NCBI GenBank assembly: GCA_965661285.1
Contig: CBFIDD010000001.1
Coordinates: forward strand, 192,001 to 256,000
Length of the DNA: 64,000 bases
Direction of reading: 5' to 3'
DNA from: Poseidonia sp.
Lineage (GTDB): Archaea > Thermoplasmatota > Poseidoniia > Poseidoniales > Poseidoniaceae
Shown here one piece after another: positions 12,281 through 64,000 of this stretch. Made by a program: the position numbers and the translations under genes. The notes below the pieces were generated by a model. The model searched no databases. It worked only from the letters and a program-made list of their open reading frames with translations, and was not told the origin of the DNA. Numbering within the stretch: the first letter of the stretch is position 1; every line of letters starts with the position of its first letter.

Positions 12281-12345
12281 GCACACGATTCAGCCATGGT
12301 GCTGGAGGAGAAGTCTTGATGTCCTCCCGCGCCCGTGCTCCGGGC

Positions 12346-47664: not shown

Positions 47665-47699
47665 GCAAGCACTATCAGGCCCCTCCGCAAGGAACGGGC

Positions 47700-48467: not shown

Positions 48468-48507
48468 CGGGGTGATGTTCAAATGCTCAACCCGACACTC
48501 AAGGCGC

Positions 48508-50415
48508 ATGGAACCCTTTGAACTTGCATGGGAACGCCAGCCCGACGACCGACAGTGGGAAAAGCCCGAAGGCGACGACCCCCGAACACTCTACCAGATG
48601 TTGATGACCAGCGTGGACCGCTTTGGCGACCTCAACTGCTTTGGCTATATCCCCGAAGCTGGCATGCCCCGAACCCACATGTCCTACACCGAATTTGGCG
48701 GCCTCGCCACCGCCGTGGGCAAGCAACTCGCTGCTGTTGGCATCAAGACCGGCGACCGCGTGGCCCTGATTCTCAACAATTCCGTGGAATGGGCTGCGCT
48801 CTCCTACGGTGCCAACGGCATCGGTGCTGCTTACACCGCCATGTACACCCACCAGCACGGCAGCGAATGGGCCTACATCCTTAACGATTCAACCCCTGCA
48901 CTGCTCGCTGTGGCTGACACCGGTGTGCTCGACAAACTGGTTGAGCACATGCCAAAGGAAGCGAGTGGATGGCCAGCGTGCGGCGTGCTGCTGCTCGGCA
49001 GCGAACCTGCCAACGAACTTCCCCCCGAAGGTGTCACCGTTCATGCGTGGACCGAATTTGTTGCCGCCGGTCGAGAAGCCGAGATGTTTGAAATCGCTGA
49101 CGACCCGTTTGCGCTCAACACGCTGATTTACACCTCCGGTACGACGGGCAACCCCAAGGGTGTCATGCTCTCCAACTGGAACACGTTGTCCAACATCCTG
49201 TGCGTGCAGTCAGCCTTCACCATCTATGTGGGCGACAAGAACGCCGCGTTCCTGCCCTGGGCACACTCCTTTGGGTCCACCTTTGACCTGCACTGGATGA
49301 TTCGCTGTGGTGTGCACATCAACCTGATCTCTGACTTGACCAAGATCGCCGACGAGTGTATCGAGATCAAGCCCGCCGTCTTGCTGGCCGTCCCCCGTGT
49401 TTGGAACAAGTTCTACGACCGTGTGAACGCTCAGTTTGAATCTGCGACCGGCCTCAAGAAGGTCTTCATCAAGAATGCTCAGAAGTCCGCCGCCAAGCGC
49501 ATCGCCAAGGCCGGTGTGGAATGCGACAAAGTGCCACCCAGTGGTTTCTTCGACAAGCTGTGGGACAAGCTGGTGTGGTCCAAGGTCCGTGCTCGATTCG
49601 GTGGCAACATCCGCTTCTGCATGTCCGGTGCTGCCGCCCTTTCCCCCGATGTGGCTGCCTTCATCCAGATGGTCGGCTTCAACTGCTACGAAGGCTACGG
49701 TTTGACCGAAACCTCCCCGCTCGTGTCCGCCAACGGCTGGTCTGGACCCGGAACCAGCCGCCTGAACACCGTCGGCAAGGTTGCCAACGGCGTGAAGGTC
49801 ACCATCGACACGGATGCTTGGGACGACCCTGAGCGCCCCGACGAGGGTGAAATCGTGGTCACGGGCCCCAACGTCATGATGGGCTACTGGAACAACGAGG
49901 AAGCCACCAAGGAAGTCATCATCGAACCTGGCACCTTCCGTACCGGTGACCTTGGCAAGTTGACCAACGGCTACCTCTCCATCACCGGTCGCGTGAAGTC
50001 GCAGTTCAAGTTGGAGAACGGCAAGTACGTCGCGCCCTCCGGCCTTGAAGAGACCATCACCCTCAACCCGCTGGTGGAGCAGTGCGTCCTCGACGGCCGA
50101 AACATGCTGAACACCTTCCTCATCGCCCACCCGAACATGGAAGCCCTCCGTGCCGCCCTCAAAGGCGCTGGCAAGGACGCCTCGGGCGACGATGCCGCAC
50201 TCTGTGCCAGCTCTGAAGTACGAACCTTCGTACTTGAGGACCTCAAGAAGAACAACATGGTTGCTCCCGACTGGAAGGGCTACGAGGTCGCCAAGACCCT
50301 CATCCTCGACCCCGAGGAGTGGACCACCGACAACGAGATGCTTACGCCCTCGTTCAAGGTCAAGTTGCGCAACCTGCTCGCCAAGCACGAAGACGAAATC
50401 AAGGCTATCGCTTGA
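48508..50415 (+). CDS. Long-chain fatty acid--CoA ligase (AMP-binding)
   Basis: IYTSGTTGNPKGVML, FLPWAH, GYGLTE, RTGDLG, GRVK, NGKYVAP. Confidence 0.92.
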   Translation: MEPFELAWERQPDDRQWEKPEGDDPRTLYQMLMTSVDRFGDLNCFGYIPEAGMPRTHMSYTEFGGLATAVGKQLAAVGIKTGDRVALILNNSVEWAALSYGANGIGAAYTAMYTHQHGSEWAYILNDSTPALLAVADTGVLDKLVEHMPKEASGWPACGVLLLGSEPANELPPEGVTVHAWTEFVAAGREAEMFEIADDPFALNTLIYTSGTTGNPKGVMLSNWNTLSNILCVQSAFTIYVGDKNAAFLPWAHSFGSTFDLHWMIRCGVHINLISDLTKIADECIEIKPAVLLAVPRVWNKFYDRVNAQFESATGLKKVFIKNAQKSAAKRIAKAGVECDKVPPSGFFDKLWDKLVWSKVRARFGGNIRFCMSGAAALSPDVAAFIQMVGFNCYEGYGLTETSPLVSANGWSGPGTSRLNTVGKVANGVKVTIDTDAWDDPERPDEGEIVVTGPNVMMGYWNNEEATKEVIIEPGTFRTGDLGKLTNGYLSITGRVKSQFKLENGKYVAPSGLEETITLNPLVEQCVLDGRNMLNTFLIAHPNMEALRAALKGAGKDASGDDAALCASSEVRTFVLEDLKKNNMVAPDWKGYEVAKTLILDPEEWTTDNEMLTPSFKVKLRNLLAKHEDEIKAIA

Positions 50416-50448
50416 GGCGTTTATATCCCCTCGAACGCTCATAATTTC

Positions 50449-50754
50449 ATGAGCAACAACAGCGATGGAGGCAGGACGCCCGAAGCCCTTCGGGCACGCT
50501 TTGAACCCCACCTCATGGAAACCTTTCACGAGCAGCGCGTGCTGTTTGAGGAAGGCCGCATACGCCTTCATGCCACCGCCAGATTGGAATGCGATGCGTG
50601 GGGCGTGAGTGTGCGCCTTGAGCCCGAAACCGATCGAGATCCGTTCACCGTCTCGGGCGCTTGGGAAATCCTCTCGGTGTGGAAGAACCGGCTGGGTGCG
50701 GCTTACGTGAGTTGGGGTATTTCGTTGCCTGAGGACGAAGAAACAGACCCTTGA
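50449..50754 (+). CDS. Hypothetical protein
   Basis: Fills an intergenic gap; TTTATA box 29 nt upstream of the ATG. Confidence 0.6.
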   Translation: MSNNSDGGRTPEALRARFEPHLMETFHEQRVLFEEGRIRLHATARLECDAWGVSVRLEPETDRDPFTVSGAWEILSVWKNRLGAAYVSWGISLPEDEETDP

Positions 50755-50770
50755 ACAGGGTGCTCAGGCA

Positions 50771-53509
50771 TCAACGGTTGTTGAGGTAGTCTTCACCGTA
50801 CCACGCCCACTGCTCCATCGTCCAGCCGGGCGGCAGGCCTTCGGGCGGAAGCGGCGGTCCGGTCTGTGTTGGCGGCGCTACAGCGGGAAGCCCCGGTACC
50901 GCTGGAAGTGCAGGAAGGGTTGGCAGAACCTCGCTCGGTCCACGTCGACGACCCACCATGAACAACAACAGGACGACGACCACGATGAGCGGCACGCCCA
51001 CGGTCAACAGGTTGCCCGAAAGCAGACCCGCCTCGTGCTTGGTGGCGTCTTCAGGGTAGGCGTCAGCGGAGTTCGACCAGCCATCGCTGTCCGTGTCGGG
51101 GCAGCCAAGGGCGTCCTCGGTCGACGTACCGTAGACCTCGGGACAATCATCGGAGAGGGCCGTGCCTTGCTCGTCGGCGTAGCCGTCATCATCGGTATCG
51201 GACCACAAAAGCACGTCATCGGGGAAGGCATCGAAAGCGTCGGCCCAACCGTCTCCGTCGCCGTCAAGGCATCCGAATGCGCCCAAGGTCGACGTTCCCG
51301 CAACATCGGGGCAAGCGTCGGGCTGAACGCCCTCGGCGTTGTCGCCATAACCGTCGCCGTCGGTGTCGAGATGCTGGGTTGGCTCCTCGGGCAGGCCGTC
51401 GTTCGCATCGGACCAGCCGTCGCCATCACCGTCCACACAACCGAAGCGGTCTTGCGTTGAGGTCCCCGCTGTCTGAGGACAAGCATCGGGCTGGAAGCCG
51501 GCGTCGTTATCGCCGTAGCCGTCGCTGTCCGCATCGAGATGCTGGGAGGCGACGGTCGGGAAGGCGTCGTTCGCGTTGGACCAACCGTCGCTGTCGGTGT
51601 CGGCGCAGCCGAACCGGTCGTAGGTGGAGGTCCCCGGACGCCCCGGACAGGCGTCGCCTTGGAAGCCGTCGGGGTTGTCCCCGTAGCCGTCTTCGTCCAC
51701 GTCGGCCCACTGGGTGCCGTCGACCGGAAAGGCGTCGATGTTGTCGCTGTAGCCGTCGTCGTCGCCGTCAGCACATCCAAGCACACCGCCCATGGAACTC
51801 GTACCCGCCACTTGCGGGCAGTTGTCTTCGGCGTCCTGAACACCGTCGTTATCGTCGTCGAGGTCTTCGTTCGAATCTTCACACCCGTCTCGGTCAGCAT
51901 CGTTGCTGTTGGAGGAGGTGAAGCCGAGGGTGCTGTTCGGACAGAGGTCTTCCTCCACGGACGAAACGGTGCAGGCCCACGCAACATCGGTCGTGGTGCC
52001 GTCGCAGATGCCGTCGTTGTCGTCGTCGAGGTCTTCACCTGCGTCCTGGCATCCGTCGCCGTCGTAATCCGTCGCAGTGGACGAGGTCCAGCCGAGTTGC
52101 CCTGCAGCGCAGGCGTCGGCGAAGTCAAACACGCCGTCGTTATCGTCGTCGTTGTCCTCAACGCTGTCTCGACAACCGTCGCCGTCGTGGTCGGTCGCAA
52201 CGCTGGAGGTCCAGCCGAGTTCACCTCGGTCGCAGGTGTCATTAACATCAAGCACGCCGTCGTTGTCGTCGTCATCGTCGCACGCATCTCCCAGTCCATC
52301 CCCGTCGGTGTTGAGCTGGGAAGCGTTGGGCACAAACGGGCAATTGTCGGCCTCATCGCCCACGCCATCGCCGTCCTCATCGGTGAACGGGTCGATGCGA
52401 ACGACCTCGTCCTGACCGTTATCGACGTAGTAGAGATGGCCGTTGGGTCCGAATTCGAGCCCCATGATGGCGGTGGCCGACGTTTGGATTTCGTCAGCGT
52501 AGGTGCCGCCTTTGCCGTCGGAAGGCAAGTCGTAGGCGACGATGTTGCCGTTGCTGTACTCCGAAACAAAGAGGTGGCCGTCGTGGAGGGCGATGCCGGT
52601 TGGACGGTCAAGACCGGTGGCGAGCACACCCCATTCGATGCCGTTGAATCGTTTGTACTCGGCGAGCGGTTCAAGCCGTGAAGGGTCGTTCATGAGGTCG
52701 GTGGAGGTGTAGGTGGCATCGTCGGTGTTGACCCATAGCACGCGGTTCGCGGCGGGGTCGGCAATGTAGAGAATCCCCGTATCGTGGTCGAGTTCCATGT
52801 GGCCGGGGACACCGAGCACGTGGCCGAGTTGGATGTCGGAGTAGCGGTGAACGATGGCGTCGGAGTGGTCGTCGTAGCCCGTGTCGTGGTCTTCAGCGAA
52901 GTCGTAGCGAACCAGTTCACCGTAGTGGCCGTCGTTGTACCAGTACACGTTATCGTAGTCGTGAGCGATGCCCGTGCCGTAAGGGGATTCGTGGTTCATG
53001 TCGATGTGGCTGCCCAGCAAGTTGTTGTTTTGGTTTTCAACGGAGTAGTGGTCAAGTGAGGACGGCCAGAGCGTGGGCCCCATGAAGTTGTTCGCTTCTG
53101 CCTGACCGCAGTAGGTGTTGGCCGTTTCTTGGGCGGAGCCCCACTGCCAGTCAAACTCGGGGTGGTAGGCACCAAAGGCGATGGCGCTGACCTCCTCAAG
53201 GAAGTGGTTGCTGTAGGCATCCTCGCGGTTCTCCGACGTTTGGTTCTCAAGGCCGGTGTTGTGCACAATCGTGATGCTGTCCGTGGCCCGGTTGGCGACC
53301 CACAACTCGCCCGTGCGGCCGGGATGGAATTCCAAATCCCGAGGGTCGTCAAGGTCGTCGAGGTAATCGGCGATGACCGTCTCGACAAATCCGTCGCCAA
53401 ACGCATCCACCGTCTCCGTGTCCTCGGCTTGGGCGGTGTAAATTGGGACAGAAGGGAGAGCGAAGAGGAGAAGGAAGACAAGGGAGAAGGCAAGTTTTCG
53501 CTCCATCAT
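50771..53509 (-). CDS. Cell-surface protein: beta-propeller-like domain, many thrombospondin type 3 repeats, TM anchor and GWTMEQW tail
   Basis: Signal peptide; PRDLEFHP/PTGIAL/GLEFGP NHL-like blades; repeated DxDxDG and DAFP/DACP units; TM helix followed by RRR; GPPLPPEGLPPGWTMEQWAWYGEDYL. Confidence 0.85.
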   Translation of the reverse strand: MMERKLAFSLVFLLLFALPSVPIYTAQAEDTETVDAFGDGFVETVIADYLDDLDDPRDLEFHPGRTGELWVANRATDSITIVHNTGLENQTSENREDAYSNHFLEEVSAIAFGAYHPEFDWQWGSAQETANTYCGQAEANNFMGPTLWPSSLDHYSVENQNNNLLGSHIDMNHESPYGTGIAHDYDNVYWYNDGHYGELVRYDFAEDHDTGYDDHSDAIVHRYSDIQLGHVLGVPGHMELDHDTGILYIADPAANRVLWVNTDDATYTSTDLMNDPSRLEPLAEYKRFNGIEWGVLATGLDRPTGIALHDGHLFVSEYSNGNIVAYDLPSDGKGGTYADEIQTSATAIMGLEFGPNGHLYYVDNGQDEVVRIDPFTDEDGDGVGDEADNCPFVPNASQLNTDGDGLGDACDDDDDNDGVLDVNDTCDRGELGWTSSVATDHDGDGCRDSVEDNDDDNDGVFDFADACAAGQLGWTSSTATDYDGDGCQDAGEDLDDDNDGICDGTTTDVAWACTVSSVEEDLCPNSTLGFTSSNSNDADRDGCEDSNEDLDDDNDGVQDAEDNCPQVAGTSSMGGVLGCADGDDDGYSDNIDAFPVDGTQWADVDEDGYGDNPDGFQGDACPGRPGTSTYDRFGCADTDSDGWSNANDAFPTVASQHLDADSDGYGDNDAGFQPDACPQTAGTSTQDRFGCVDGDGDGWSDANDGLPEEPTQHLDTDGDGYGDNAEGVQPDACPDVAGTSTLGAFGCLDGDGDGWADAFDAFPDDVLLWSDTDDDGYADEQGTALSDDCPEVYGTSTEDALGCPDTDSDGWSNSADAYPEDATKHEAGLLSGNLLTVGVPLIVVVVLLLFMVGRRRGPSEVLPTLPALPAVPGLPAVAPPTQTGPPLPPEGLPPGWTMEQWAWYGEDYLNNR
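51040..52390 (-). repeat. Thrombospondin type 3-like Ca-binding coding repeats
   Basis: Recurring D-x-D-x-D-G units with CP and GC dipeptides (approximate boundaries). Confidence 0.8.
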
Positions 53510-53593
53510 GAATCGTATGTGTGGCGCTTCGCATTTGATACCTTGCTTTTCCTGCGCTCAAACGTAGCTGCTGTGTGCGGATTGGCCCGGTGT

Positions 53594-55270
53594 TCACACT
53601 TCGGAGACTTCACCTTCAGCCAAGGGCGGCAGGCCCTTCTTGGCTCGGACATAATCGGTGTAGTTGCCGTAATACACGGAGACCACGCCGTCTTGAAGTT
53701 CCCAAATGCGGTTGACGACCTGGTCGAGGAACCAGCGGTCGTGGGAGACGGTGATCAGCGAACCCGTGTAGTTGATGAGCGCCTCTTCAAGGGTGGCTTT
53801 GGAATCCATGTCCAGGTGATTGGTCGGCTCGTCCATCAGCAGGAGGTTGTTTTCCTCGAGCAGGAGTTTGAGCAGGGCCACACGCGCCCGCTCGCCACCG
53901 GAGAGTTGGGAGAGTTTGGTCGAGACCTGTTCGCTGGAAAATTGGAAGCGACCCAAGGCTGCACGGATGTCGCCGTACTGGAAGTCGGGACGGAGTTTCT
54001 GAATTTGCTCGACCGGATTGAGGTTGAAGTCAAGGGTCGCGTGGTCCTGATGGAAGTAGCCAATTTCACAGCCCGGGGCCAAATCCATCTTGCCGCTGGT
54101 CAATTTCTCGTCGCCGTTGATGAGTTTCAACAACGTGGTTTTCCCTTGCCCGTTGCCGCCCACGATGCCGATGCGGTCGCCCTTGCGGACTTCCAGCGAT
54201 TGGTTGTCGAGGATCTTGCGGTCCAGTCCTTCAAACGCCTTCGTTCCGCCGTCAATGGTGAGCACATCCATGCTGGCCTTGTCCGTCGCTTCGAGGGAAA
54301 GGATGAGAGGTTTGCGCTTCTTGGGCACGCGGGCTTTGAGCGCCTTCAATTCCTGCTGCATGCGCTCGATCATCTTGTGCTTGGCCGAGATGGACTTGTC
54401 GTACTTGTTCGCCCGCTTCATCTGCGCCATGGCGCCCATGGTGGATTGGATTTTCTTCTCAATGTTGGCGATGGCTTCGCCAAGTGCTGCCTCGCTGGCG
54501 GTCTTCTGCACGAGGAACTGGCTGTAGTTGCCCTTCCACGGCCACGCCCGAAGGTTGTCGATTTCCACGATGCGGTTGCAGACTTGGTCGAGGAAGTAGC
54601 GGTCGTGGGAGACGATGAGTTGGGCGCCTTTGAATTCGGTCAGGAAGGTTTCGAGCCACTCGGTCGTGTGGATGTCGAGGTGGTTGGTCGGCTCGTCAAG
54701 GAAGATGACGTCGATGCCGTTGAGGCCGACGAGTTGGCGAGCGAGCGCCAGTTTGGCCTGCTCGCCGCCCGAGAGTTTGTTGACGGGCATGTCCATGGGG
54801 TGCTGGTCGAGGCCGAGGCGCTCGAGAATGCCCTTGGCGATGCCTGCGACGTTGCCCCCACCGCTGGAGGCGAGGGTTTGCTGGAGTTCGCTGTAGCGTT
54901 CCATCACCGGTTCCCAATCGCCCTCGTAGAAGGCGGGGTCAACCATTTGGGCTTCGATGGCGGCGATCTCGTCCTCGAGTTCTTGGAATTGACGACCTTT
55001 GCGACCGAGTTCCTCTTCGATGGTTGAATCCGATTCAAGGTCTCGAATCTGTGTCAAGTAGGCGAGACGGATGCCAGGGGCGAATTCAACGTCGCCCGTG
55101 TCTTGCTTTTGCTCGCTGATGGTGTTGAGCAAGGTCGTCTTTCCCGCACCGTTGTGACCGACGATACCGATGCGGTCGCCGTCGTTGACTTTGAGGTTGA
55201 TGTCCTGAAGCACATCGACTGCACCAAAGGAGCGGTCAACCGCTTCGACGTTGATGAGTTCGCGTGCCAT
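53594..55270 (-). CDS. ABC-F family ribosome-associated ATPase
   Basis: Two NBDs (GHNGAGKTT and GGNGQGKTT; LSGGE, DEPTNHLD and SHDR each twice), no TM segments. Confidence 0.92.
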   Translation of the reverse strand: MARELINVEAVDRSFGAVDVLQDINLKVNDGDRIGIVGHNGAGKTTLLNTISEQKQDTGDVEFAPGIRLAYLTQIRDLESDSTIEEELGRKGRQFQELEDEIAAIEAQMVDPAFYEGDWEPVMERYSELQQTLASSGGGNVAGIAKGILERLGLDQHPMDMPVNKLSGGEQAKLALARQLVGLNGIDVIFLDEPTNHLDIHTTEWLETFLTEFKGAQLIVSHDRYFLDQVCNRIVEIDNLRAWPWKGNYSQFLVQKTASEAALGEAIANIEKKIQSTMGAMAQMKRANKYDKSISAKHKMIERMQQELKALKARVPKKRKPLILSLEATDKASMDVLTIDGGTKAFEGLDRKILDNQSLEVRKGDRIGIVGGNGQGKTTLLKLINGDEKLTSGKMDLAPGCEIGYFHQDHATLDFNLNPVEQIQKLRPDFQYGDIRAALGRFQFSSEQVSTKLSQLSGGERARVALLKLLLEENNLLLMDEPTNHLDMDSKATLEEALINYTGSLITVSHDRWFLDQVVNRIWELQDGVVSVYYGNYTDYVRAKKGLPPLAEGEVSEV

Positions 55271-55413
55271 GGTGGGTCCCTCACTTCGACGGCCGCCGTT
55301 GACCGTTGATAAATCACCCTCATCGCGCCAAGCGACCGGGCGCATTGCATCGGCGACCAGCATGAGGGAAGGGCCACCCTTGAATTGATGAACCAAAGGC
55401 TGCTGGAAGGAGC

Positions 55414-58400
55414 ATGGCCGAAGACGAAGAGGTCGTGTTCACGACGAGCACCGGTCCCGTCCGTGTCATCACGGCAGCGTCTCTGTTTGACGGCCACGAC
55501 GCCGCCATCAACGTCATGCGACGGCTCATCCAGTCCTCGGGGGCTGAAGTCATCCACCTCGGCCATGACCAGTCGGCCAAAGCGGTCGTTGACTGTGCCA
55601 TTCAGGAAGACGCCCACGCCGTGGCCCTGACCTCGTACCAGGGCGGCCACGTTGAGTACTTCACCTACATTCGCCAGCTGCTCGATGAAGCCGGTTGCCA
55701 GCACGTCCGCATCTTTGGCGGTGGCGGCGGCACCATCACGCCGCCCGAAATTCGCACCCTCCACCAGTCGGGCATCTCCAAGATTTACTCGCCCGACGAC
55801 GGCCGAACGATGGGCTTGATGGGCATGATTCACCACCTGATGGGAATGGCGAGCGACGTCGATTTGGTCGGGAAGGCGCGCATGGACAGCCTGAACGGGC
55901 CGGTAACGCCTGAGGATATGGCGAAGGTCGGCTTGTTGTTGACGCTCTCAGAATCGGCCGATGAGAAGACCTTCAAGGCCGCTGTGGAAGCGTGCCGCTC
56001 CTCGGACAAGGACGTCCCCGTTATCGGGTTCACCGGAACGGGCGGGGCAGGAAAATCCAGCCTGCTCGACGAATTGATGCTGCGCATTCAACGGGATAAC
56101 CCCGGCAAGAAGGTCTGCCTGCTGTGCGTTGACCCTACACGAAAGCGAACCGGTGGCGCCCTTCTTGGGGACCGCATCCGCATGAACTCGCTTTCCAACA
56201 ACGACCTCTACATGCGCAGCCTCGCCAGCCGTGGCAGCGGCTCGGAGATCAGCGCAAACCTCGACCGAGCCATCGAGGTCGCCAAAGCGGTCGGCTTCGA
56301 CCTCATTTTCTGCGAGACCAGCGGCATCGGCCAGGGCAGCGACGCCATCACGACGGTGGCCGACCATTCCCTCTATGTCATGACCGCCGAGTTCGGTGCT
56401 CACACCCAACTCGAGAAGATCGAGATGCTCGATGTCGCCGATGTTGTCGTTCTTAATAAGTATGAGAAGCGGGGCAGTGAAGACGCCTTGCGAGCCATTC
56501 GCAAGCAGGTGCGTCGCAACCGCAACATGTTCGACGTGGCCGATGAGGAACTCCCCGTTGTCGCCACCATCGCCAGCCAGTTCGCTGACGGTGGCGTTGA
56601 CCGCCTGTGGCAGAAAGTCGCCGGACTTGTGGGCTTTGAGGCCAGCCAGCCCGTCGACGCCATGGGCGAGCGCAAAGGCGTGATTCCGCCCGAGCGCATT
56701 CACTACCTGTCGGAAATCGCCGCCACGGTGCGCGACTACCACGCCGCCAACACCGAAGTCGCCGAGAAGTTGCGCCTGTGCCAGCATTTGGAGACGGCTG
56801 CCGCCAATGCTGAAGAGCGCGGTGTGAAGGCGACGGCGAAGGATGTGCGGGCCCAGATTGGCGAGATCATGGAAGGGCTCGATGAGGCGAAGGAGGCCTT
56901 GGAAAACTTCCGGGCGTTGGCCGAGGAATACGCTTCAGGCCAGTACACCTACCACGTGCGTGGCAAGCCGTTCAAGGTTCAGACCACGACCGAATCGCTG
57001 GCGCACTCGAACATTCCTCGTGTCGCTTTGCCCAAGACCCGGGATGACGGCGAGTTGTACCAGTTCATCACCAAGGAAAACGCTCCCGGCCATTTCCCCT
57101 ACACCGCCGGCGTCTTCCCGTTCAAGCGAACCGACGAGTTGTCGGCCCGCATGTTCGCCGGTGAAGGCGAGCCCGAGCGCACCAACCGTCGCTTCCACTA
57201 CCTGAGCCAAGGCCAGGACTACGTCCGCCTCTCGACCGCCTTTGACTCGGTCACGCTCTACGGGCGGGACCCCGCTCGCCGCCCTGACATCTGGGGCAAA
57301 GTGGGCAACTCCGGCGTCTCCATCGCCACCACCGACGACGCCAAGCGCCTTTACTCCGGCTTTGACTTGTGCAACGCCAACACCTCGGTCTCGATGACCA
57401 TCAACGGGCCGGCGCCCATCATCTTGGCCTTCTTCCTCAACGCTGCTATTGACCAGCAGGTGGAAGCGTATCTTGCCGAACAGGGCAAGCCGGCGAAGTT
57501 GTTGGATTCCGCCTACCGGGGAGAACTCCCGGAAGGGCACAACGGGTTTGGACTGGCGACCGTGGGACGACGGGGCGACGAAATGGTGGACCCCAAGACC
57601 TACGCTGAGATCAAGGCACGAACCCTGCAGACGGTGCGTGGAACGGTCCAAGCCGACATCCTCAAGGAAGACCAGGCGCAAAACACCTGCATCTTCTCCA
57701 CGCCCTTTGCGCTCAAACTCATGGGCGACGTGCAGCAGTACTACATCGACCACGGCGTTCGCAACCACTACTCCGTGTCCATCTCGGGCTACCACATCGC
57801 TGAGGCTGGAGCGAACCCCATCACGCAACTTGCCTTGACGCTCGCCAACGGATTCACCTACGTGGAGTACTACCGCAGTCGGGGCATGGACATCAACAAG
57901 TTCGCACCGAACCTTTCCTTCTTCTTCTCCAACGGTCTTGACCCCGAATACACGGTCATCGGCCGGGTCGCACGCCGCATTTGGGCGGTCACCATGCGCG
58001 ACATGTACGGGGCCGACGAGCGCAGTCAGAAACTCAAGTACCACATTCAGACGAGTGGACGCAGCCTTCACGCCCAGGAGATCGACTTCAATGACATCCG
58101 AACGACCCTACAGGCTCTGCTTGCGATTCAAGACAACGCCAACTCCCTCCACACCAACGCCTATGACGAGGCCATCACCACCCCCACCGAAGAATCGGTG
58201 CGACGCGCCCTGGCAATTCAGCTCATCGTCAACAAGGAGAGCGGCTGGACCAAGACGGAGAACCCGATGCAGGGCGCCTACATCGTGGACGAACTGACCG
58301 ACCTCGTCGAGGATGCCGTGCTTCAGGAATTCGAAGCGATTTCCCGTCGTGGCGGCGTGCTCGGGGCCATGGAGACCATGTACCAGCGAGGCAAGATTCA

Positions 58401-58755
58401 GGACGAATCGATGTACTACGAGCACCTCAAGCACGACGGGACGCTGCCCATCATCGGCGTGAACACCTTCCAGAACCCCAACGCCGCCGCCTTTGACGAA
58501 TCAGCGGCGGACGACTTCGAGATGGAACTCGCTCGTGCGACGCCCGAGGAGAAGGAAGCCTGTTTGGAGCGGGTGGTCCACCGACAAACGGTGGACGGTG
58601 AGGCCACGCAGGCGGCCCTTGCGCAGCTGCAAGAAGTCGCACGCCAAGGCGGGAACGTGTTCGAGGAACTGATGGAGACCGTCAAGGTGGCGAGCTTGGG
58701 TCAAATCACGGATGCGCTGTTCAACGTGGGTGGGCAGTATCGGCGAAACATGTGA
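55414..58755 (+). CDS. icmF: Fused isobutyryl-CoA mutase (B12-binding, MeaI GTPase and mutase domains)
   Basis: ASLFDGHDA, GTGGAGKSS, GDRIRM, ARMFAG (Phe at the specificity position), RLSTAFDSVTLYG, GTVQADILKEDQ, GQYRRNM. Confidence 0.95.
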   Translation: MAEDEEVVFTTSTGPVRVITAASLFDGHDAAINVMRRLIQSSGAEVIHLGHDQSAKAVVDCAIQEDAHAVALTSYQGGHVEYFTYIRQLLDEAGCQHVRIFGGGGGTITPPEIRTLHQSGISKIYSPDDGRTMGLMGMIHHLMGMASDVDLVGKARMDSLNGPVTPEDMAKVGLLLTLSESADEKTFKAAVEACRSSDKDVPVIGFTGTGGAGKSSLLDELMLRIQRDNPGKKVCLLCVDPTRKRTGGALLGDRIRMNSLSNNDLYMRSLASRGSGSEISANLDRAIEVAKAVGFDLIFCETSGIGQGSDAITTVADHSLYVMTAEFGAHTQLEKIEMLDVADVVVLNKYEKRGSEDALRAIRKQVRRNRNMFDVADEELPVVATIASQFADGGVDRLWQKVAGLVGFEASQPVDAMGERKGVIPPERIHYLSEIAATVRDYHAANTEVAEKLRLCQHLETAAANAEERGVKATAKDVRAQIGEIMEGLDEAKEALENFRALAEEYASGQYTYHVRGKPFKVQTTTESLAHSNIPRVALPKTRDDGELYQFITKENAPGHFPYTAGVFPFKRTDELSARMFAGEGEPERTNRRFHYLSQGQDYVRLSTAFDSVTLYGRDPARRPDIWGKVGNSGVSIATTDDAKRLYSGFDLCNANTSVSMTINGPAPIILAFFLNAAIDQQVEAYLAEQGKPAKLLDSAYRGELPEGHNGFGLATVGRRGDEMVDPKTYAEIKARTLQTVRGTVQADILKEDQAQNTCIFSTPFALKLMGDVQQYYIDHGVRNHYSVSISGYHIAEAGANPITQLALTLANGFTYVEYYRSRGMDINKFAPNLSFFFSNGLDPEYTVIGRVARRIWAVTMRDMYGADERSQKLKYHIQTSGRSLHAQEIDFNDIRTTLQALLAIQDNANSLHTNAYDEAITTPTEESVRRALAIQLIVNKESGWTKTENPMQGAYIVDELTDLVEDAVLQEFEAISRRGGVLGAMETMYQRGKIQDESMYYEHLKHDGTLPIIGVNTFQNPNAAAFDESAADDFEMELARATPEEKEACLERVVHRQTVDGEATQAALAQLQEVARQGGNVFEELMETVKVASLGQITDALFNVGGQYRRNM
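58684..58755 (+). repeat. Direct repeat copy 1: icmF 3' end
   Basis: Aligns without gaps to 59528-59599; 62/72 identical by hand count. Confidence 0.92.
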
Positions 58756-58813
58756 AGCTTCAACCCTCAGCATGCCGGAGAATTCTTTATCTGTCTCACA
58801 TTGAACCAATCAC

Positions 58814-59491
58814 ATGGAGACCCCACCTCCATCCTCTGATTCCAAGCCAAAGGCGATCACCATTGGAAATGTGAATATCTCGCCAATGGCCCTCGAAGAG
58901 CAGACGCAGGACACTCCCCCATCCATCGAACCCACCGTGAATCGTTTTGATGGGAACGAACATTCTGATCTTCACGGCCTCGTACGAACCAGAACCGATT
59001 CAACGATCAAAACCAGCACTTCTCCCGGCCTCTTCGTGATGTTCCTGTATTACCTTCCTTCTCTTTACCTCTGCATGGCTATTTTTGTTGTCCCTGACAG
59101 GATCAATGTAGAGGCTTTCATCGTGGGGATCATGGCACCCATTATTGGATTCATTGTTGGCCTTTTTCACCTGAGATGGGAATTTTTCAGAGGCTTTCTT
59201 TTGCAGATTGGTCTCTCTTTTCCCGTTGCTGTTCTTTGGTGCGTCGCAGGTGCTGCCGGTCTGTTTGGGAATTCCAGTGCTGCCGATCTGTTGGGGGAAA
59301 ACTATCTGCATGAGAAATTCACCATGGCCTTGCTGGCCACCCTTCTTGCAACCCTCATTCTCCCCTTCAACTACCACACGAAGTCTTTGCATGGCCGAGC
59401 GCTGGGCGCCTTATACGGTGCTCCTTTCGGGGTTTGTCTCTTGTTGATCGGCCTCTTGATTGGTGTCATCAGTCGGTTTGGCATTGTCTGA
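58814..59491 (+). CDS. Hypothetical membrane protein (about 5 TM) between the direct repeats
   Basis: Disordered N-terminus then hydrophobic helices; TTTATC box at -28; AT-richer codons than core genes. Confidence 0.7.
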   Translation: METPPPSSDSKPKAITIGNVNISPMALEEQTQDTPPSIEPTVNRFDGNEHSDLHGLVRTRTDSTIKTSTSPGLFVMFLYYLPSLYLCMAIFVVPDRINVEAFIVGIMAPIIGFIVGLFHLRWEFFRGFLLQIGLSFPVAVLWCVAGAAGLFGNSSAADLLGENYLHEKFTMALLATLLATLILPFNYHTKSLHGRALGALYGAPFGVCLLLIGLLIGVISRFGIV

Positions 59492-59527
59492 TGAATACGG
59501 GCACTCAAACGATGGGTGAGGGCCGCG

Positions 59528-59599
59528 AAAATGGCGAGCCACGGTCAGATCACCGATGCGCTGTTCAACGTGGGTGGGCAGTACCGGCGCAATATGTGA
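59528..59599 (+). repeat. Direct repeat copy 2: orphan icmF 3' fragment
   Basis: Translates as KMASHGQITDALFNVGGQYRRNM* versus IcmF KVASLGQITDALFNVGGQYRRNM*. Confidence 0.92.
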
Positions 59600-59669
59600 T
59601 TGATTTTCCTCCTATAGTTTGCCGCCTGCGCGTGTGCTTCGTTATTTTATGAAGTTTTCAACCGAAGCC

Positions 59670-59677
59670 TTTATAAA
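59670..59677 (+). promoter_or_regulatory. Canonical TATA box of the island operon
   Basis: TTTATAAA preceded by CCGAAG (BRE-like); SD-like AGGAGG before ATG 59747. Confidence 0.65.
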
Positions 59678-59698
59678 GGTGGTAGTCCCGACACCATA

Positions 59699-59965
59699 AT
59701 GCCCGCACCAACAAATAGGACCCATATACAAAAGGAGGCGAACACCATGCAAACGAATACAATAACCGAAAACCTAGCACTGACCGAGCTGATGAACCAC
59801 GACGGAGGCGTTGACGCTGACATGGTGGACATTTACTTCCACTCTCCAGACTTAATCAAGGCTCTTACCATGGCCGTGAAGCAAAACCTTGTGATTTGGG
59901 ACAATGACAGAATCCACATTGAACCCAAGCTGTTCTTCGCCATGGTTCAGGGGGTGGCGTTCTGA
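59699..59965 (+). CDS. Small hypothetical protein, possibly winged-helix
   Basis: Helix-helix-hairpin pattern LIKALTMAVKQNLVIWDNDRIHI. An alternative start at ATG 59747 follows AGGAGG. Confidence 0.6.
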   Translation: MPAPTNRTHIQKEANTMQTNTITENLALTELMNHDGGVDADMVDIYFHSPDLIKALTMAVKQNLVIWDNDRIHIEPKLFFAMVQGVAF

Positions 59966-61095
59966 TTACGCTCACGCTCTCATGTTCCAATCCACAATGC
60001 GGAAGCGCCATGCGACTGCCGTTCACAACCCACTCGGTTTTTCCGAACATCGAAAACCGTTGCGCAGTGTGTAATCAAGGCGTCCTCATCATTTCACAGA
60101 TTGAAAATGAGGACCCTCCTCTTGCAACCACGGCAGCCATCCATGCAGAAGCACCCGCCAGCGATGTCTCATTGAACGAGAGTCTTGGAGGAAACCGCAT
60201 TTTCACAGCATTCCAAAACCGATTGGCGCCTCTTGTCGTCATCCTTCAACTCATTGATGAACTGAGTGAGGAAACCGGAGACGTTGAGATTTCAGCCCTG
60301 GTTGAAGCCTTCAAAGAGCGCTCGGGATTCTTGCGAAAGCACCTCTCCGACCGTCTCGAGCACCCGCTTGGCGTCAAGCGAGGCCAGAAACTGTCGGACG
60401 GCTTTCCGGCCGTTGACCGCCCTGGCCCATTGAACATCACCCTTCGAAACTACATCGGTTGCGATGAAAAACGATTGTTGGTAGGCCGTGGGCTCATCCA
60501 GGAGTTTGACCTGGTGACCATTGTTGACGATACCAAACTCAAGCTGACAGAGAAAGCAAAGCCGTTCCTCAAACTTCCTCACCTCGCTGACAAAATTGAG
60601 ACCACACAGGAGTTGGTAGCGTTCTACTCCAATCCAGTTCTACCGAAGTACTACGAAGAAGCGTTTGCGTTCGAACTCGCTCATGCAGTTGGAACGTTAG
60701 CTCCCGATCAGCACGATTGGATGATGCACATTCTCGGAAAAATCATCGCTTGCGAACACAAGAACGGTTGGGATTCCAACGCCTATGCTGCCGATGAAAC
60801 GCAACTCGCCAGTGTTGGGAAGGCTCATGCGCGGTGGAGGCTCATCGACCACACGTTCGGAACCTTGTATGAGAAATTCGAAGCCCAGGCGGTGCGAAAG
60901 GCTCACCATGACCCTGAGGGACAAGCCAGGAGTCGTCATGAGAGCCACGTCAATGGGAAGCTTGGCAGCGTTTTGAGTCATCTCAAGGAACTCGGGTTCA
61001 TTGTACCCGTGGCTGTGGGGAACACGAAGAATTTCGCAGCAACGGAGCGTGGGCACAGATACCAAGATTCAATGTCCAAAGGAGTTGAAAAGTGA
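59962..61095 (+). CDS. Hypothetical protein with probable N-terminal Zn ribbon and winged-helix-like segments
   Basis: ORF track start is 60010, but the frame extends to CTG 59962, giving CSNPQC...CAVC. wHTH-like LSHLKELGFI...FAATERG at the C-terminus. Confidence 0.65.
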   Translation: MITLTLSCSNPQCGSAMRLPFTTHSVFPNIENRCAVCNQGVLIISQIENEDPPLATTAAIHAEAPASDVSLNESLGGNRIFTAFQNRLAPLVVILQLIDELSEETGDVEISALVEAFKERSGFLRKHLSDRLEHPLGVKRGQKLSDGFPAVDRPGPLNITLRNYIGCDEKRLLVGRGLIQEFDLVTIVDDTKLKLTEKAKPFLKLPHLADKIETTQELVAFYSNPVLPKYYEEAFAFELAHAVGTLAPDQHDWMMHILGKIIACEHKNGWDSNAYAADETQLASVGKAHARWRLIDHTFGTLYEKFEAQAVRKAHHDPEGQARSRHESHVNGKLGSVLSHLKELGFIVPVAVGNTKNFAATERGHRYQDSMSKGVEK

Positions 61096-61147
61096 TGATT
61101 TTTAGAACCCAAGGTAGATATACCTGTTTTGAAAGTTAGGTGGATGC

Positions 61148-63280
61148 ATGACGATTGAGTGGGTTTTTGATAAAGCGGGAGCGAACATGACCAAGCACCG
61201 TGACATGGAGGAAGGAATCGTCCAAGCCACAAGCACGATGACTCGCCTCGAGATTCTAGCTCGGGAAAACGAACAAAATCTTGTGGACCATCCTGCAGAC
61301 AACACAAAGCCCACACGATGCACCTATGAGGTGAAAAAACTCTCAGGGTCTGTCAAAGATGATTTTTATGCCACACTATGTATGAGTGATTATGGACCTC
61401 ACATAGATGGGGCAATAAAACCGCCCATTGCTGATTTCCCTGTTGCAACGAACCTTGTTTCAGATACCAGTGAAGACCTAAATCTTTTGATAATCCGCCA
61501 CGACAATGGAATTGGTTTACTCGGTGGTGAATTCATTGATGAGGGGACGGTCGACAAAAATTTTCGGGCGCTCGTGAAATCTTACGGACTTAATGAGAAG
61601 GGCGCAGATGGCGGCGGAGGTTCTCACGGTGTTGGGAAAAACGTTTACTGGCAGTGGTCCAAACACGGAATTGTCCTTTTTTATTCAAGCCTGTCAAAAG
61701 ATTACAAGGGCCACACTCGCAGATTCATTGGTACAGGCCGAGTGAAGGTGGCTCACATGGAGAAGGTAGGAGGGCCAACTTACCACCCCTATGGCCTCCT
61801 TGGAACAAAAACTACTCATGGAGGCGTTGATGCCTGTGTTTCGTTGTATGATGATGACGCAGATACCCTTGCGAAAAAACTCGGGCTAAATGTAAGGTCT
61901 CCAACTGAACCAGGTACAACCATCGTCATTGTAGGATTCAGGGACCCATTGGATCCAACAAAAGATTGGGTTGATGAAGCAATCAATGGAGAAACAACCT
62001 TGCGATTTTCGTCTGAGAAGAGTTGGTTTCCCGCAAAACTATCTAATGCACTCGAGGTATCTTATGTTGACGCATCAGGACCAGAAAACTGGGACCCAAC
62101 CGTAGGTAAAAGTTTTCGATTGTTGAAATGGTTGGAAAAGGGCCTTGATGAGGAGAAAGGGGCGGATGAATTAGTCCCCGGTCGCCCAAAACGTTGTCCT
62201 ACAACTTTGAAGAGAATTGAACTCGACTTGTCCATCCCAAGAGATTACCCAGGAAACAGCACAACTGGAGTCTTACGGTCAAAGGCCGTGCTGGCACTGA
62301 TGATTGTTGATGATGAAGAATTCGACCAACCGAACCCAGAACTTGGAGATGACAAATGGGGGACTACGGCGTGTATCAGACACACGGGCATGGTGGTCAC
62401 ATACAAACCATTCATTCAAAAACCTACAAAGTTTTATCGAGGCGTCCTGTTAGTTGGTAAGAGCGTTGATACTTTTGACAAAAAACTCCGGGGCACGCTC
62501 AATGCTGATGCACAGAAATTGGCAGAAGAAATGATGAAGTTCAGTGAGCCCGCAGTGCATGATGACTGGCAACCCAAAAATTTCAGCGCATACGTCGCAG
62601 GAAACGGTTCACTAGAATCTGGGTACAGAGCAGTCGCATCCGTTGGTGAAAGAAGAATTTCAACCTTCCTCAAAGATGTTGAGAAAGCAACAAGAGAAGC
62701 ACTTGGCCTTCTCGCACCACCGAAGGCCAAGAAATCTGCTGACTGGGCAGATTTGTCAAAAGAACTCGATTTTGGCTCAAGCAACTCTGATTCTGGAGGC
62801 AGGATCATCAGCATTACATCTTCAAAGGTGGTCAAAACTGATGGAAATAAAGCTAAACTTTCATTCAATGTTGATGTGCCTAGATTGGGGCCTGCAAACG
62901 GATGGAATTCGAAGACCACACATTGGTGGCTCAAAATCGTACCCAAACTGTTGTGGCCAAACGGGAAAAAGCAGACACCTCCCACAGAGATTGTCTGTAT
63001 TGACTTTGCTAATTTGCTGGATGATGCAAACAACTCAACATGGAAGAACCTAGCAAAGGTGAATTATGCTACTCGCAAAGCGGAGTGGAAGAAGAAAGCC
63101 AGCCGTCAAGCAAAAGCCATGAAAATTGATGAATGGGTTGGCAAGGTGAACCACTTGGAAAAGGCAGAAGTATTGACAAAAAACATCTCGTTGTCTTTCA
63201 AGAACATTGAAATTGACTTAACAGGATATGAGAATGCTATGTTGGTATTGTCTATCGAAGCTGGAGAGGTGAGACCATGA
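61148..63280 (+). CDS. GHKL (HATPase_c/MORC/MutL-like) ATPase-domain protein
   Basis: N-box RENEQNLVD, G1 HDNGIGL, G2 GGSHGVGK, G3 PGTTIVI in the expected order. Confidence 0.72.
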   Translation: MTIEWVFDKAGANMTKHRDMEEGIVQATSTMTRLEILARENEQNLVDHPADNTKPTRCTYEVKKLSGSVKDDFYATLCMSDYGPHIDGAIKPPIADFPVATNLVSDTSEDLNLLIIRHDNGIGLLGGEFIDEGTVDKNFRALVKSYGLNEKGADGGGGSHGVGKNVYWQWSKHGIVLFYSSLSKDYKGHTRRFIGTGRVKVAHMEKVGGPTYHPYGLLGTKTTHGGVDACVSLYDDDADTLAKKLGLNVRSPTEPGTTIVIVGFRDPLDPTKDWVDEAINGETTLRFSSEKSWFPAKLSNALEVSYVDASGPENWDPTVGKSFRLLKWLEKGLDEEKGADELVPGRPKRCPTTLKRIELDLSIPRDYPGNSTTGVLRSKAVLALMIVDDEEFDQPNPELGDDKWGTTACIRHTGMVVTYKPFIQKPTKFYRGVLLVGKSVDTFDKKLRGTLNADAQKLAEEMMKFSEPAVHDDWQPKNFSAYVAGNGSLESGYRAVASVGERRISTFLKDVEKATREALGLLAPPKAKKSADWADLSKELDFGSSNSDSGGRIISITSSKVVKTDGNKAKLSFNVDVPRLGPANGWNSKTTHWWLKIVPKLLWPNGKKQTPPTEIVCIDFANLLDDANNSTWKNLAKVNYATRKAEWKKKASRQAKAMKIDEWVGKVNHLEKAEVLTKNISLSFKNIEIDLTGYENAMLVLSIEAGEVRP

Positions 63281-64000
63281 GCAACACATCAAAAACACCT
63301 GCAATTATGCTGCCACACGAAACCGGAGAAATTACACTTACAAAGGCAATTGTTGAATTCAAAGATACATCCGGGAATCCTTGTTGGGACAAATATGAGT
63401 GGGTTAATTCTGATGATGATTCTCCCCGAGTGGATGCTCGCGAGTCGTATCCAAACTATTCAGAAGATCAACTCTATTCACCCGTTGATACCTGCGAGGT
63501 TTCCTTGACATTTTCTGCTGATACGGAGGATTGTCTCATGGATGTTGACGATGAATTCCAATATTGGGTCAAAATTATTAGCAGTGCATCAAAGTACCAG
63601 ATTGTGAGGCCTGGAGTAGAATCCAAGCGAGGGAAATATAATACCACGATGTCCGTCACCCTACTCCGAGATGAGTTTCTGAACCTCAAAGGACTTGTAG
63701 AGTGTGAGATTATCCTAATTAAATCAGGAGACGGCACGTCCGTCGGTACGAATCCTGTCAAGACTACCAGCGGAGTTTTTGCGACCTCTGACGGAGCAAT
63801 TCTTGCTACTTCCGATTCAGATTCAACGTTACAAATTGTGTTGGACGACCCATCCGCCCCGACATCAAAGGGAATGGAACTTGAATGGATTGACATGAGC
63901 GATACTCCAAACGCACAATATGTCTTGAATTATTTGAATTGTGAAAATCCCAATGAAACGAACTTCAAAATCACACTCCAATTGAATGACAAGTCTCACC
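63277..64000 (+). CDS. Hypothetical protein (partial), translationally coupled to the GHKL gene
   Basis: ATGA overlap at 63277-63280 with SD-like GGAGAGGTGA; frame MSNTSKTPAIMLPHE... open to the window end by manual translation. Confidence 0.8.
   Translation, partial: MSNTSKTPAIMLPHETGEITLTKAIVEFKDTSGNPCWDKYEWVNSDDDSPRVDARESYPNYSEDQLYSPVDTCEVSLTFSADTEDCLMDVDDEFQYWVKIISSASKYQIVRPGVESKRGKYNTTMSVTLLRDEFLNLKGLVECEIILIKSGDGTSVGTNPVKTTSGVFATSDGAILATSDSDSTLQIVLDDPSAPTSKGMELEWIDMSDTPNAQYVLNYLNCENPNETNFKITLQLNDKSH

Follow-up and report, generated by a model that had tools for sequence, protein, structure and literature searches.

How genes enter defence islands and flexible islands, both of them well known, without an integrase or transposase is a question that is sharpest for uncultured, streamlined marine microbes. 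This question is raised by a 64,000-nucleotide stretch of Poseidonia sp. DNA (the window; its contig is C1 and its genome, of 1.98 Mb, is G000), in which the 3' end of icmF stands on both sides of a one-gene cassette, directly before a low-GC island.

The duplicated icmF 3' end

The docking gene, icmF (55414–58755, plus strand), is intact and encodes a fused isobutyryl-CoA mutase of 1113 aa, 96.8% identical in amino acids to its counterpart in G011. Its Pfam domains (B12-binding, MeaB and MM_CoA_mutase) are those of the mutase and rule out the IcmF of type VI secretion. The final 57 nt of the gene are found again 844 nt downstream, at 59543–59599, with 52 of 57 positions identical (91.2%; E = 7.5e-15, blastn-short against the whole 1.98-Mb genome). 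All five differences within these last 19 codons (caa/cag, acg/acc, tat/tac, cga/cgc, aac/aat) are synonymous third-position changes, exactly as originally predicted. A repeat search extended the pair to 77 nt at 84% identity, giving copy 1 (58679–58755, plus strand) and copy 2 (59523–59599, plus strand); over the 68 nt of homology five codons differ synonymously and one non-synonymously (L/H). TGA terminates both copies. The right limit of similarity is the stop codon, and to the left similarity fades 10–20 nt before the 57-mer, which agrees with the decay predicted just upstream. From the repeat search, blastn-short and codon comparison, copy 1 is the working icmF end and probably arrived with the cassette. 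Copy 2 reads ...KMASHGQITDALFNVGGQYRRNM up to its stop, without a long open frame upstream.

Among 1420 G000 ORFs submitted to the same test, icmF was the only one with a downstream stub of its own 3' end; the remaining matches were internal repeats or paralogues. Its last ~50–150 nt form a terminal block conserved at the nucleotide level (ending GGQYRRNM and stop), preceded by a poorly conserved stretch. No third copy of the icmF end was found across the whole G000 genome by blastn-short, tblastn of the last 30 residues or self-blastn. The predicted accumulation of further copies downstream is therefore not seen in G000, but arrays do exist elsewhere, of three copies (all stubs) and of nine (the real gene end and eight stubs).

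The inserted cassette comprises the 767 nt between the copies (58756–59522, plus strand; GC ~0.48–0.55). Its sole ORF (58814–59491, plus strand) is the one membrane-protein gene expected between the copies, and encodes 225 aa with no function assigned and no match to a Pfam, PHROG or PADLOC family; the best score in an Atlas look-up was 0.84, under the tool's meaningful level. Hydrophobic 19-residue windows (Kyte-Doolittle ≥ 1.6) form seven overlapping stretches over residues 72–225, judged by eye to be about five hydrophobic regions. Homologues of ~400 aa each occur in 11 of 401 Poseidoniales genomes (G000 counted) and adjoin icmF in G000 and G011 only, while 188 pattern matches in metagenome contigs yielded no confirmed relative. 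GC falls from ~0.60 in icmF to 0.41–0.54 from 58800 to the window end, in keeping with the prediction of AT-richer DNA after the repeat. The low-GC variable island starts at 59600, fills the window to 64000 without an assigned strand, and continues to ~C1:261,170 (given as 7 kb beyond the window). Its ORFs lie at 59699–59965, 60010–61095, 61148–63280 (weak PDC-M33A match) and from 63277 onwards, and past the window end it encodes a C5 DNA methylase and an Exo_endo_phos protein. No tRNA gene that could provide a tRNA-type attachment site was found in 45000–64000. Two tRNA-Arg genes (C1:264,502–264,663) were rejected as attachment sites: they lie within a block common to G011, and the islands contain no partial copies of them.

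Insert-free sites, foreign ends and arrays

We found that copy 2 and the DNA following it match the junction of icmF end and flank in three metagenome contigs (L241, L222 and L224). These carry a true icmF body, 86–93% identical to that of G000, with the island directly after it and no cassette; the island matches that of G000 at 80–84% over ~1550 nt in L241 and L222, and at 84.5% over 950 nt in L224, where the contig ends. Copy 2 is the displaced old icmF end, joined without a gap to the sequence found immediately behind icmF in these insert-free contigs. Likewise, the stub of G077 is followed by a 208-aa gene whose counterpart in G286:C52 (91% identical) directly adjoins the icmF stop, and that of G212 by a homologue of the gene abutting icmF in G026 and G034. 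In G009 the icmF gene is a mosaic, G006/G012-like until ~65 nt before the stop, with its last 60 nt 95% identical to G011, and the displaced stub, 4981 nt downstream, is of the G006/G012 type. The working icmF end of G009 is foreign and its stub is native. The empty sites and the G009 mosaic support the original prediction that an incoming icmF end from another strain replaced the resident end and displaced the old one.

Differences between copies are mostly synonymous, at ratios of synonymous to non-synonymous of 5:1 in G000, 2:0 in G077 (85/88 nt identical, the first 58 nt without a difference) and 29:9 in L123 (45/490 nt different). Nine copy pairs together gave 58 synonymous and 25 non-synonymous codon differences. 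This bias indicates that the divergence arose in working genes of different lineages, as anticipated by the claim that both copies had evolved under coding selection. The gene content downstream of icmF also differs among strains, with no unrelated DNA in G006/G012, 6.3 kb in G009, ~10 kb in G000 and ~24 kb in G011, consistent with the proposed integration hotspot.

icmF is hit in archaea as well as in five phyla of bacteria. Stubs of icmF occur in four other Poseidoniales genomes (24–88 nt), in 21 cases on marine metagenome contigs (47–319 nt, several grouping at 144–146 nt), and at seven bacterial loci that include the isolate Limnohabitans sp. Bal53 (L123, 490-nt stub) and a Flavobacteriales contig with eight consecutive stubs. 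In 9/9 pairs examined the right edge coincides with the stop codon or falls 0–8 nt past it, and the left edges give lengths of 24 (G212, the shortest), 38, 52, 54, 65, 68, 86, 88 and 490 nt. Stubs accompany 7/59 icmF genes vs 2/471 other ORFs of the same loci (Fisher p = 4.6e-6), in a set drawn through the icmF motif, where multi-copy loci had more chances of being picked. As a control, the end of a methylmalonyl-CoA mutase paralogue (27-letter pattern) matched 31 of 401 genomes, all in single copies, a comparison underpowered against 5/123 for icmF. Two genomes with two matches each, G065 and G286, were rejected as tandem repeats, each having two icmF-bearing contigs. Among CC-licensed PMC and bioRxiv papers we found none that treats icmF (mutase) as a place of insertion or that deals with the defence islands of Poseidoniales.

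Where cargo could be named, most of it consists of defence or addiction genes, namely restriction-modification, GmrSD, PARIS and toxin-antitoxin. Restriction and modification genes occur in the inserts of L119, L247 and L270; the G000 cassette has neither, and other inserts hold PARIS parts, GmrSD, toxin-antitoxin pairs, membrane proteins or unknowns. Most cargo proteins belong to no known family, so a new kind of recombinase may be among them. A blastp comparison of nine bacterial loci with all archaeal loci found no common cargo; the only matches were icmF and, upstream of it, a single distant pair of ABC type.

Cassettes are also permuted between arrays. Their order is R-A-R-B-R in L231 and B-R-A-R in L274, and the 88% alignments between the two stop at stub stop codons; the same 481-aa cargo stands behind the real icmF in L258/L262 and behind a stub in L276. 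In L087, a frame-breaking 2-nt deletion is common to six of eight stubs and a 17-nt insertion to three, indicating that stubs were copied from one another.

A model of insertion and its rivals

With moderate confidence, we favour recombinase-independent, homology-anchored additive insertion at the conserved terminal block of icmF, followed by reshuffling between stubs. The block would act like a tRNA gene end, as a homology anchor common to many strains and placed exactly at the border of the variable region. DNA of another strain would arrive with the donor's icmF end in front and the donor's cargo behind it, and recombine with the resident icmF inside the block; the second joint would be illegitimate, slightly upstream of the resident stop, or else a circle would enter by a single crossover. 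icmF would thereby be rebuilt with the donor end, the cargo behind it and the resident old end left as a non-coding stub behind the cargo, and repeated insertion would produce arrays. The stubs would stay recombination sites, at which ordinary homologous recombination could exchange, rearrange and excise cassettes, and an element-encoded recombinase would not be required. RadA/RecA together with end joining presumably makes the joints, and the route by which DNA passes between cells is likewise presumed.

Several observations sit less easily with this homology-anchored model. The contigs contained no recombination intermediate, and the 24-nt repeat of G212 is short for homologous recombination. 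The nearly uniform ~95-nt left edges in L087 and the cluster at 144–146 nt are also expected from a defined site, and the targeting of icmF in six phyla would be explained by the conserved end alone.

Integrative elements that restore the 3' end of their target use integrases specific for tRNA, tmRNA or protein genes, and the tycheposons of Prochlorococcus reportedly also target and restore a gene 3' end. The icmF inserts resemble such elements in the direct repeats of the target 3' end that flank them, the intact target, tandem accretion and a site bordering a flexible island in marine plankton. Unlike them, they carry no integrase, are as small as one gene (0.5–5 kb), have repeats of no fixed length (24–490 nt), target a metabolic protein gene and have no free virus or small plasmid found with the icmF end.

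The main rival, which we consider unlikely, is a recombinase acting in trans. The enzyme would be encoded elsewhere and recognise a core within the final ~24 nt of icmF; each cassette would be a satellite without an integrase that brings its own copy of the site, as in integrons or cargo-only elements targeting tRNA genes. The right edge that is always at the stop codon, the minimal common core of 24 nt in G212, the nearly uniform left edge (~95 nt) of the L087 repeat unit, the permuted cassette order and the same target in archaea and five bacterial phyla would all follow from such an enzyme. However, no recombinase lies in or beside any array. Pfam searches of 36+22+23+33+40 insert ORFs found no integrase, recombinase or transposase family except for a single IS transposase next to the L110 orphan stub, PHROGs likewise found no integrase, and no integrase was found within 8 kb in L119, L122, L123, L126, L133, L141 or the archaeal loci. 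The recombinase proposed for the far island end was found neither there nor anywhere in the inserts, and the sole tyrosine recombinase match in G000 (PF00589, C1:532959–533468) is 280 kb away. Repeat lengths spanning 24–490 nt and the lack of common archaeal and bacterial cargo also argue against this rival. No dyad symmetry was seen by eye in the repeat core, and DNA folding of both G000 copies on both strands was no better than that of shuffles (z = +1.0, +1.6, -0.6 and +0.5), on which basis an attC-like imperfect palindrome was rejected for G000. Finally, the site is on no virus or small plasmid. Viral contigs gave 0 matches to the icmF end and phage records 0 with two queries, so the suggestion that marine archaeal viruses might carry the 57-mer was not borne out. 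Six plasmid records of 0.38–11.9 Mb matched, none of them small, three at an annotated full-length mutase gene and three without a feature under the match. The arrays do resemble integrons in having small cassettes parted by a recurring 60–150-nt element, in an order that differs among strains and with the newest cassette probably adjacent to the fixed end. Unlike integrons, they have icmF itself upstream and no intI there, no attC-type hairpin, cargo on either strand, and a repeat that is a copy of coding sequence.

A strict long target duplication, in which staggered breaks in the recipient, tens to hundreds of bases apart, are filled in so that both repeats are the recipient's own, is improbable here. 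The concept is documented in bacteria, where restriction-modification units insert with long target duplications (Furuta, Abe, Kobayashi 2010, PMC2853133); that screen reported no archaeal case surviving its selection. Such inserts are <20 kb without mobility genes and bring cargo of an addictive or defensive kind; their direct repeats exceed 30 bp, are single-copy in insert-free sequence and often touch a gene 3' end. This anatomy is that of G000 against L241/L222/L224 and of G077 against G286:C52. Inserts without mobility genes, often holding restriction-modification or other addiction genes, the long repeats of variable length and the nearly identical G077 copies would fit. However, the working end and stub of G009 come from different lineages, and the differences in L123 (45/490 nt, 29:9) and G000 (5:1) are unexpected had one copy been neutral since an in-place duplication. 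The icmF loci further depart from such duplications in that their copies come from different lineages, and in that the same end has been struck repeatedly across two domains, archaea included, with arrays of up to nine copies.

Homology-anchored insertion has a parallel in the displacement of Rhs/CDI toxin C-termini and in type VI effector-immunity orphan arrays, attributed to homology-facilitated illegitimate recombination (Kirchberger et al. 2017, PMC5361080). There, a conserved upstream anchor likewise has non-homologous modules added behind it, old 3' parts are shifted into arrays, and a dedicated recombinase is not known. The icmF anchor is instead an enzyme with an invariant end of its own, its displaced part is a dead stub and not a usable toxin tip or immunity gene, and its cargo is unrelated to the anchor.

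It is very improbable that copy 2 is retained for a function, whether to encode a small peptide (MASHGQITDALFNVGGQYRRNM) or to serve in regulation or as a terminator: an ATG does open a 22-codon frame in the G000 copy, whose last 19 codons are intact, but the stubs of G011, L122, L133 and L087 carry stops, frameshifts and insertions, the repeat shows no fold signal, and left edges vary among cases.

A wider reading, which we offer tentatively and regard as rather doubtful, is that genes most conserved at their last codons may serve as recombinase-free, tRNA-like docking sites, and that icmF may be the first recognised integron-like cassette platform run on host homologous recombination alone, gathering defence and addiction genes in Archaea and Bacteria. 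If true, it would explain how plankton with few integrases, Marine Group II archaea among them, build and reshuffle defence islands.

The stubs are fossil records of single insertions, preserving the place of crossover, the foreign end and the order of cassette arrival, and with them the question of island entry can be tested on sequence data only. Should the rule be general, scans for 3'-end stubs would find the insertion hotspots of any genome or metagenome and measure gene flow between strains. Stubs would also delimit single cassettes, a route to new defence genes among cargo ORFs without known family, and the ideas of long target duplication and displacement arrays would extend to Archaea and to a housekeeping-type enzyme gene.

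Population variation at the stop codons

That icmF ends of two strains were stitched in tandem by the assembly is barely credible, even though MAGs and metagenome contigs supply most of the examples and the repeat is a place where assemblies break, because contigs from three other studies run unbroken from the copy-1 end through the cassette into the start of copy 2 (99–100% identity), one contig of run X1 runs through copy 2 into the island, and the same architecture occurs in the Limnohabitans isolate and inside a 630-kb contig (G077). The chimeric assembly that might have refuted the original prediction fails on the same spanning contigs.

The population is polymorphic at the stop codons. 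Contigs of runs X15, X4 and X3 join 58716–58755 to the cassette; contigs of run X3 depart from the G000 sequence right after 59599 and one X15 contig right after 58755, each as a loose end. Contig cover of 59644–61500 (none in X4 and X15, low-depth only in X3) was not counted as variation. The contigs searched, all assembled rather than raw reads, contained no junction of copy 1 to copy 2 (excision) and no circle junction. Three skips considered as excision products, with sides of 24–34 letters and in single contigs, were set aside. By a hand count of our tables, 16/77 minus-strand icmF ends lie <700 nt from a contig end vs 0/19 control gene ends. In MAG G065, two contigs carry icmF genes that are 99.7% identical and are followed by different islands.

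The icmF end and its displaced copy in Poseidonia

At 55414–58755, an open reading frame of 1113 aa joins B12-binding, MeaB GTPase and methylmalonyl-CoA-mutase-type domains. IcmF here denotes the fused isobutyryl-CoA mutase and should not be confused with the secretion protein that bears this name too. The host is most likely a Marine Group II archaeon; the closest named matches of its icmF, in Candidatus Poseidoniaceae and Thermoplasmatota MAGs, share 74–78% identity across the full gene. The final 77 nt are repeated at 59523–59599 with 84% identity (52/57 over the final 57 nt); both copies terminate in TGA, the similarity ends at the stop codon, and the five differences within the final 19 codons are, as the original prediction had it, all synonymous. 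Further copies, considered possible downstream, did not appear, as no third copy was found in the whole 1.98-Mb, 8-contig genome (G000). Among 1420 ORFs tested in this genome, icmF alone was followed by a stub of its own last 30 residues; the remaining hits were repeat proteins or paralogues.

Between the working end (copy 1) and the stub (copy 2) lies a cassette with a sole ORF (58814–59491), whose 225-aa product shows seven overlapping stretches of hydrophobic 19-residue windows (residues 72–225) and matched no known family in our search. GC content is ~0.60 in icmF and 0.41–0.54 from 58800 on. The cassette ORF and copy 2 share one reading frame, 2 TGA codons and 10 sense codons apart (59480–59599), and an ATG within copy 2 opens a 22-codon frame. 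Upstream of icmF, on the minus strand, are an ABC-F type ATPase gene (53594–55396) and, past it, an ORF of 912 aa whose product carries thrombospondin type 3 repeats (50771–53509).

Logan contigs from four runs of four studies were aligned to 57500–61500. Runs X15, X4 and X3 each yielded one contig leading from within copy 1 across the cassette into copy 2 (866 nt, 857 nt and 763+135 nt, respectively; 0–6 differences), and a contig of run X1, possibly the source sample itself, led from the cassette across copy 2 up to 59778. Two X3 contigs diverged exactly past 59599 and one X15 contig exactly past 58755; no contig of the four runs joined copy 1 straight to copy 2. A further X15 contig agreed with the cassette gene from 59045 on, with 255 unlike letters ahead; the gene may have another 5′ part in other strains, and homologues of its protein elsewhere are ~400 aa, versus 225 aa in G000.

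A true icmF body lies upstream of the repeat in three contigs from metagenomes, L241, L222 and L224 (137/160 and 131/141 identical to G000), and the DNA that lies behind copy 2 in G000 directly follows their icmF stop. The match to this variable low-GC island is 80–84% over ~1550 nt in L241 and L222 and 84.5% over 950 nt, to the contig end, in L224. Since all three share the copy-2 flank and lack the cassette, G000 corresponds to an empty site enlarged by 844 nt, which comprise a new gene end and a single gene, and the predicted displacement of the resident end is borne out, copy 2 being the old one. At the same place, contig L247 has another cassette (a DNA methylase and a 388-aa ORF), behind which a 131-nt stub leads into this island too.

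Recurrence in Poseidoniales and marine metagenomes

The gene end was sought in 401 genomes of the order with a 27-letter pattern, one mismatch permitted, which matched in 123 (reversed-pattern control, 0). Seven genomes gave two matches, five of them true downstream repeats (G000, G009, G011, G077 and G212); G065 and G286 are each a pair of icmF-bearing contigs, the two G065 genes being 99.7% identical with different defence genes behind each. The G077 insert (3.2 kb, low GC) contains AriA/AriB (PARIS) fragments and precedes an 88-nt stub (85/88 identical); the gene after the stub is 91% identical to that abutting the icmF stop in G286 (contig C52). G212 belongs to another family of the order; there, a single 481-aa ORF precedes a 24-nt stub, behind which lies a homologue of the gene abutting icmF in G026 and G034.

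The backbone gene that comes next (~900 aa, CD36-family match) begins ~140 nt past icmF in G006 and G012. G009 has, in order, icmF, a 1599-aa ORF, a 54-nt stub 4981 nt past the stop, a T5orf172 gene and the CD36-type gene. Up to ~65 nt before the stop, G009 icmF resembles that of G006 and G012 (82–90%, versus 42–70% for the G000 clade); over its final 60 nt it matches G011 at 95%, and the G009 stub, QITTAFFQVGGQYRRNM, is of G006/G012 type. The proposal that incoming DNA carried the icmF end of another strain therefore holds in G009. The CD36-match gene lies behind the hotspot at L040:9998–12691 (G000, beyond the window), L033:8670–11453 (G009) and L039:13083–15737 (G011), with E-values of 8e-12 to 4e-15; the CD36 family is mostly known as eukaryotic scavenger receptors.

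The cassettes of G000 and G011 encode homologues (43–49% identity), and their stubs share AAT and the following TTGA; the islands behind differ (10 kb vs 24 kb). Between the G000 island and the CD36-domain gene sits a minus-strand tRNA-Arg pair (GCG, TCG; L040:9502–9576 and 9589–9663, G000 C1:264,502–264,663), with 3′ ends pointing to the island. G011 has the same pair, and the block from ~C1:261,170 is common to both genomes (76%); neither island contains partial copies of the tRNA-Arg genes.

A protein query found icmF in 4 of 24 genus relatives searched, and by the end pattern it occurs in 10 of 51 of genus g1; the methylmalonyl-CoA mutase paralogue (~37% identity) was present in all. The occurrence of icmF is patchy, and this docking gene could belong to the accessory genome.

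A 42-letter pattern specific to the icmF end of the G000 clade retrieved 71 distinct marine contigs, 13 of which carry two or three copies. The 82 copies reaching the last residue comprise 16 real genes, 45 running off the contig start and 21 stubs (homology 47–319 nt). The repeat is a place where assemblies break: 42 of the 71 contigs have their start no more than ~130 codons ahead of the stop of a copy (hand count), and in the genomes of the order minus-strand icmF ends lie <700 nt from a contig end in 16/77 cases, versus 0/19 for a control gene (hand counts). Most cargo ORFs have no family and none is a recombinase; named cargo includes GmrSD as a one-gene cassette, an AAA_15/21 ATPase, a Dam methylase fusion with an AIPR protein, an N6/N4 methylase and DndE. 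Contigs L231 (stub-A-stub-B-stub) and L274 (B-stub-A-stub) give 88% alignments that end at stub stop codons, and the same 481-aa cargo follows a real icmF in L258 and L262 and a stub in L276.

Bacterial arrays

An exact 27-letter pattern, applied to one genome per species, matched at least 123 stretches. Among the matches listed (77 distinct loci), stubs followed 7 of the 59 icmF genes having ≥1 kb downstream, compared with 2 of 471 other ORFs of the same loci (Fisher p 4.6e-6), a comparison biased toward multi-copy loci by selection via the icmF motif. Stub-bearing icmF genes occur in Ca. Kapaibacterium (L119), Ca. Leptovillus (L122) and Chitinophagales (L126), Calditrichia (L133) and Bacteroidetes (L141) MAGs. 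The isolate Limnohabitans sp. Bal53 (L123) has a 490-nt stub with 45 differences (29 synonymous vs 9 non-synonymous codons), and a Flavobacteriales contig (L087) holds the real end and 8 stubs within 5.7 kb. Several of these 8 stubs have frame-breaking changes in common, six of them a 2-nt deletion, so L087 stubs were copied from one another. Three (4930–4989, 6200–6258 and 7465–7523) have the same 17-nt insertion, a GC-rich inverted repeat (CCCGGC..GCCGGG) inside former coding sequence. Paired cargo comprises Phd/PIN, DUF433/DUF5615, DUF4160/DUF2442, HepT, DUF4258/DUF2283 and DUF3368/UPF0175; other cargo includes a methylase with partner, an M48 peptidase with DUF898, and small membrane proteins. 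No cargo common to archaeal and bacterial arrays was found.

One of the two other ORFs with a stub is an M50 peptidase/CBS gene in a Chryseobacterium MAG locus (L110). Its end recurs as a 28-residue stub 690 nt downstream, with an MNT-type nucleotidyltransferase gene inserted between, which argues that the process is not confined to icmF. The same locus contains an icmF-end stub of 32 residues that is an orphan, icmF being absent within 8 kb, and that adjoins a Mutator-family transposase gene (these features lie at oriented 7929–8027 and 12028–13107). Downstream of icmF in a Rhodoferax MAG locus (L104), the end of a minus-strand 251-aa ORF (4745–5500) is copied 4.6 kb further on (27 residues, 100% identical).

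Mechanism of insertion

We favour homology-anchored additive insertion at the icmF end because no integrase, recombinase or transposase family lies inside any insert, the sole tyrosine recombinase gene of G000 is 280 kb distant, the G000 repeat folds no better than shuffled sequence, and the viral carriers considered did not materialize, no virus or small plasmid with the repeat being found. The main rival, a recombinase acting in trans, would suit the uniform ~95-nt unit of L087 and a 144–146-nt group among the metagenome stubs. Homology-anchored insertion is further favoured because repeat lengths vary, copy 1 of G009 is foreign, differences between copies are mostly synonymous and the L087 stubs are inter-copied. 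The identity profile of icmF also fits it, the terminal 90 nt being 80–90% identical between genera and the stretch 120–270 nt upstream only 40–70%. Entry could combine homologous exchange inside the conserved block at the gene end with an illegitimate joint, or take the form of a single crossover with a circular piece of end and cargo; homologous recombination among stubs would follow.

Literature outside subscription journals yielded nothing on icmF as an insertion site or on Poseidoniales defence islands. The nearest described events are restriction-modification units inserted with long target duplication, found in a screen that reported no surviving case from archaea (PMC2853133). Likewise close are Rhs and type VI displacement arrays, attributed to homology-facilitated illegitimate recombination (PMC5361080).

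Most local direct repeats in G000 stem from repeat-rich surface proteins. Contig C2 has a perfect 71-nt direct repeat (228696–228766 and 231261–231331; spacing 2.6 kb) and, near it, a 128-nt repeat (230354–230480 and 231311–231438; 84%), where a 260-aa ORF has a 29-residue match 863 nt downstream (52% identical).
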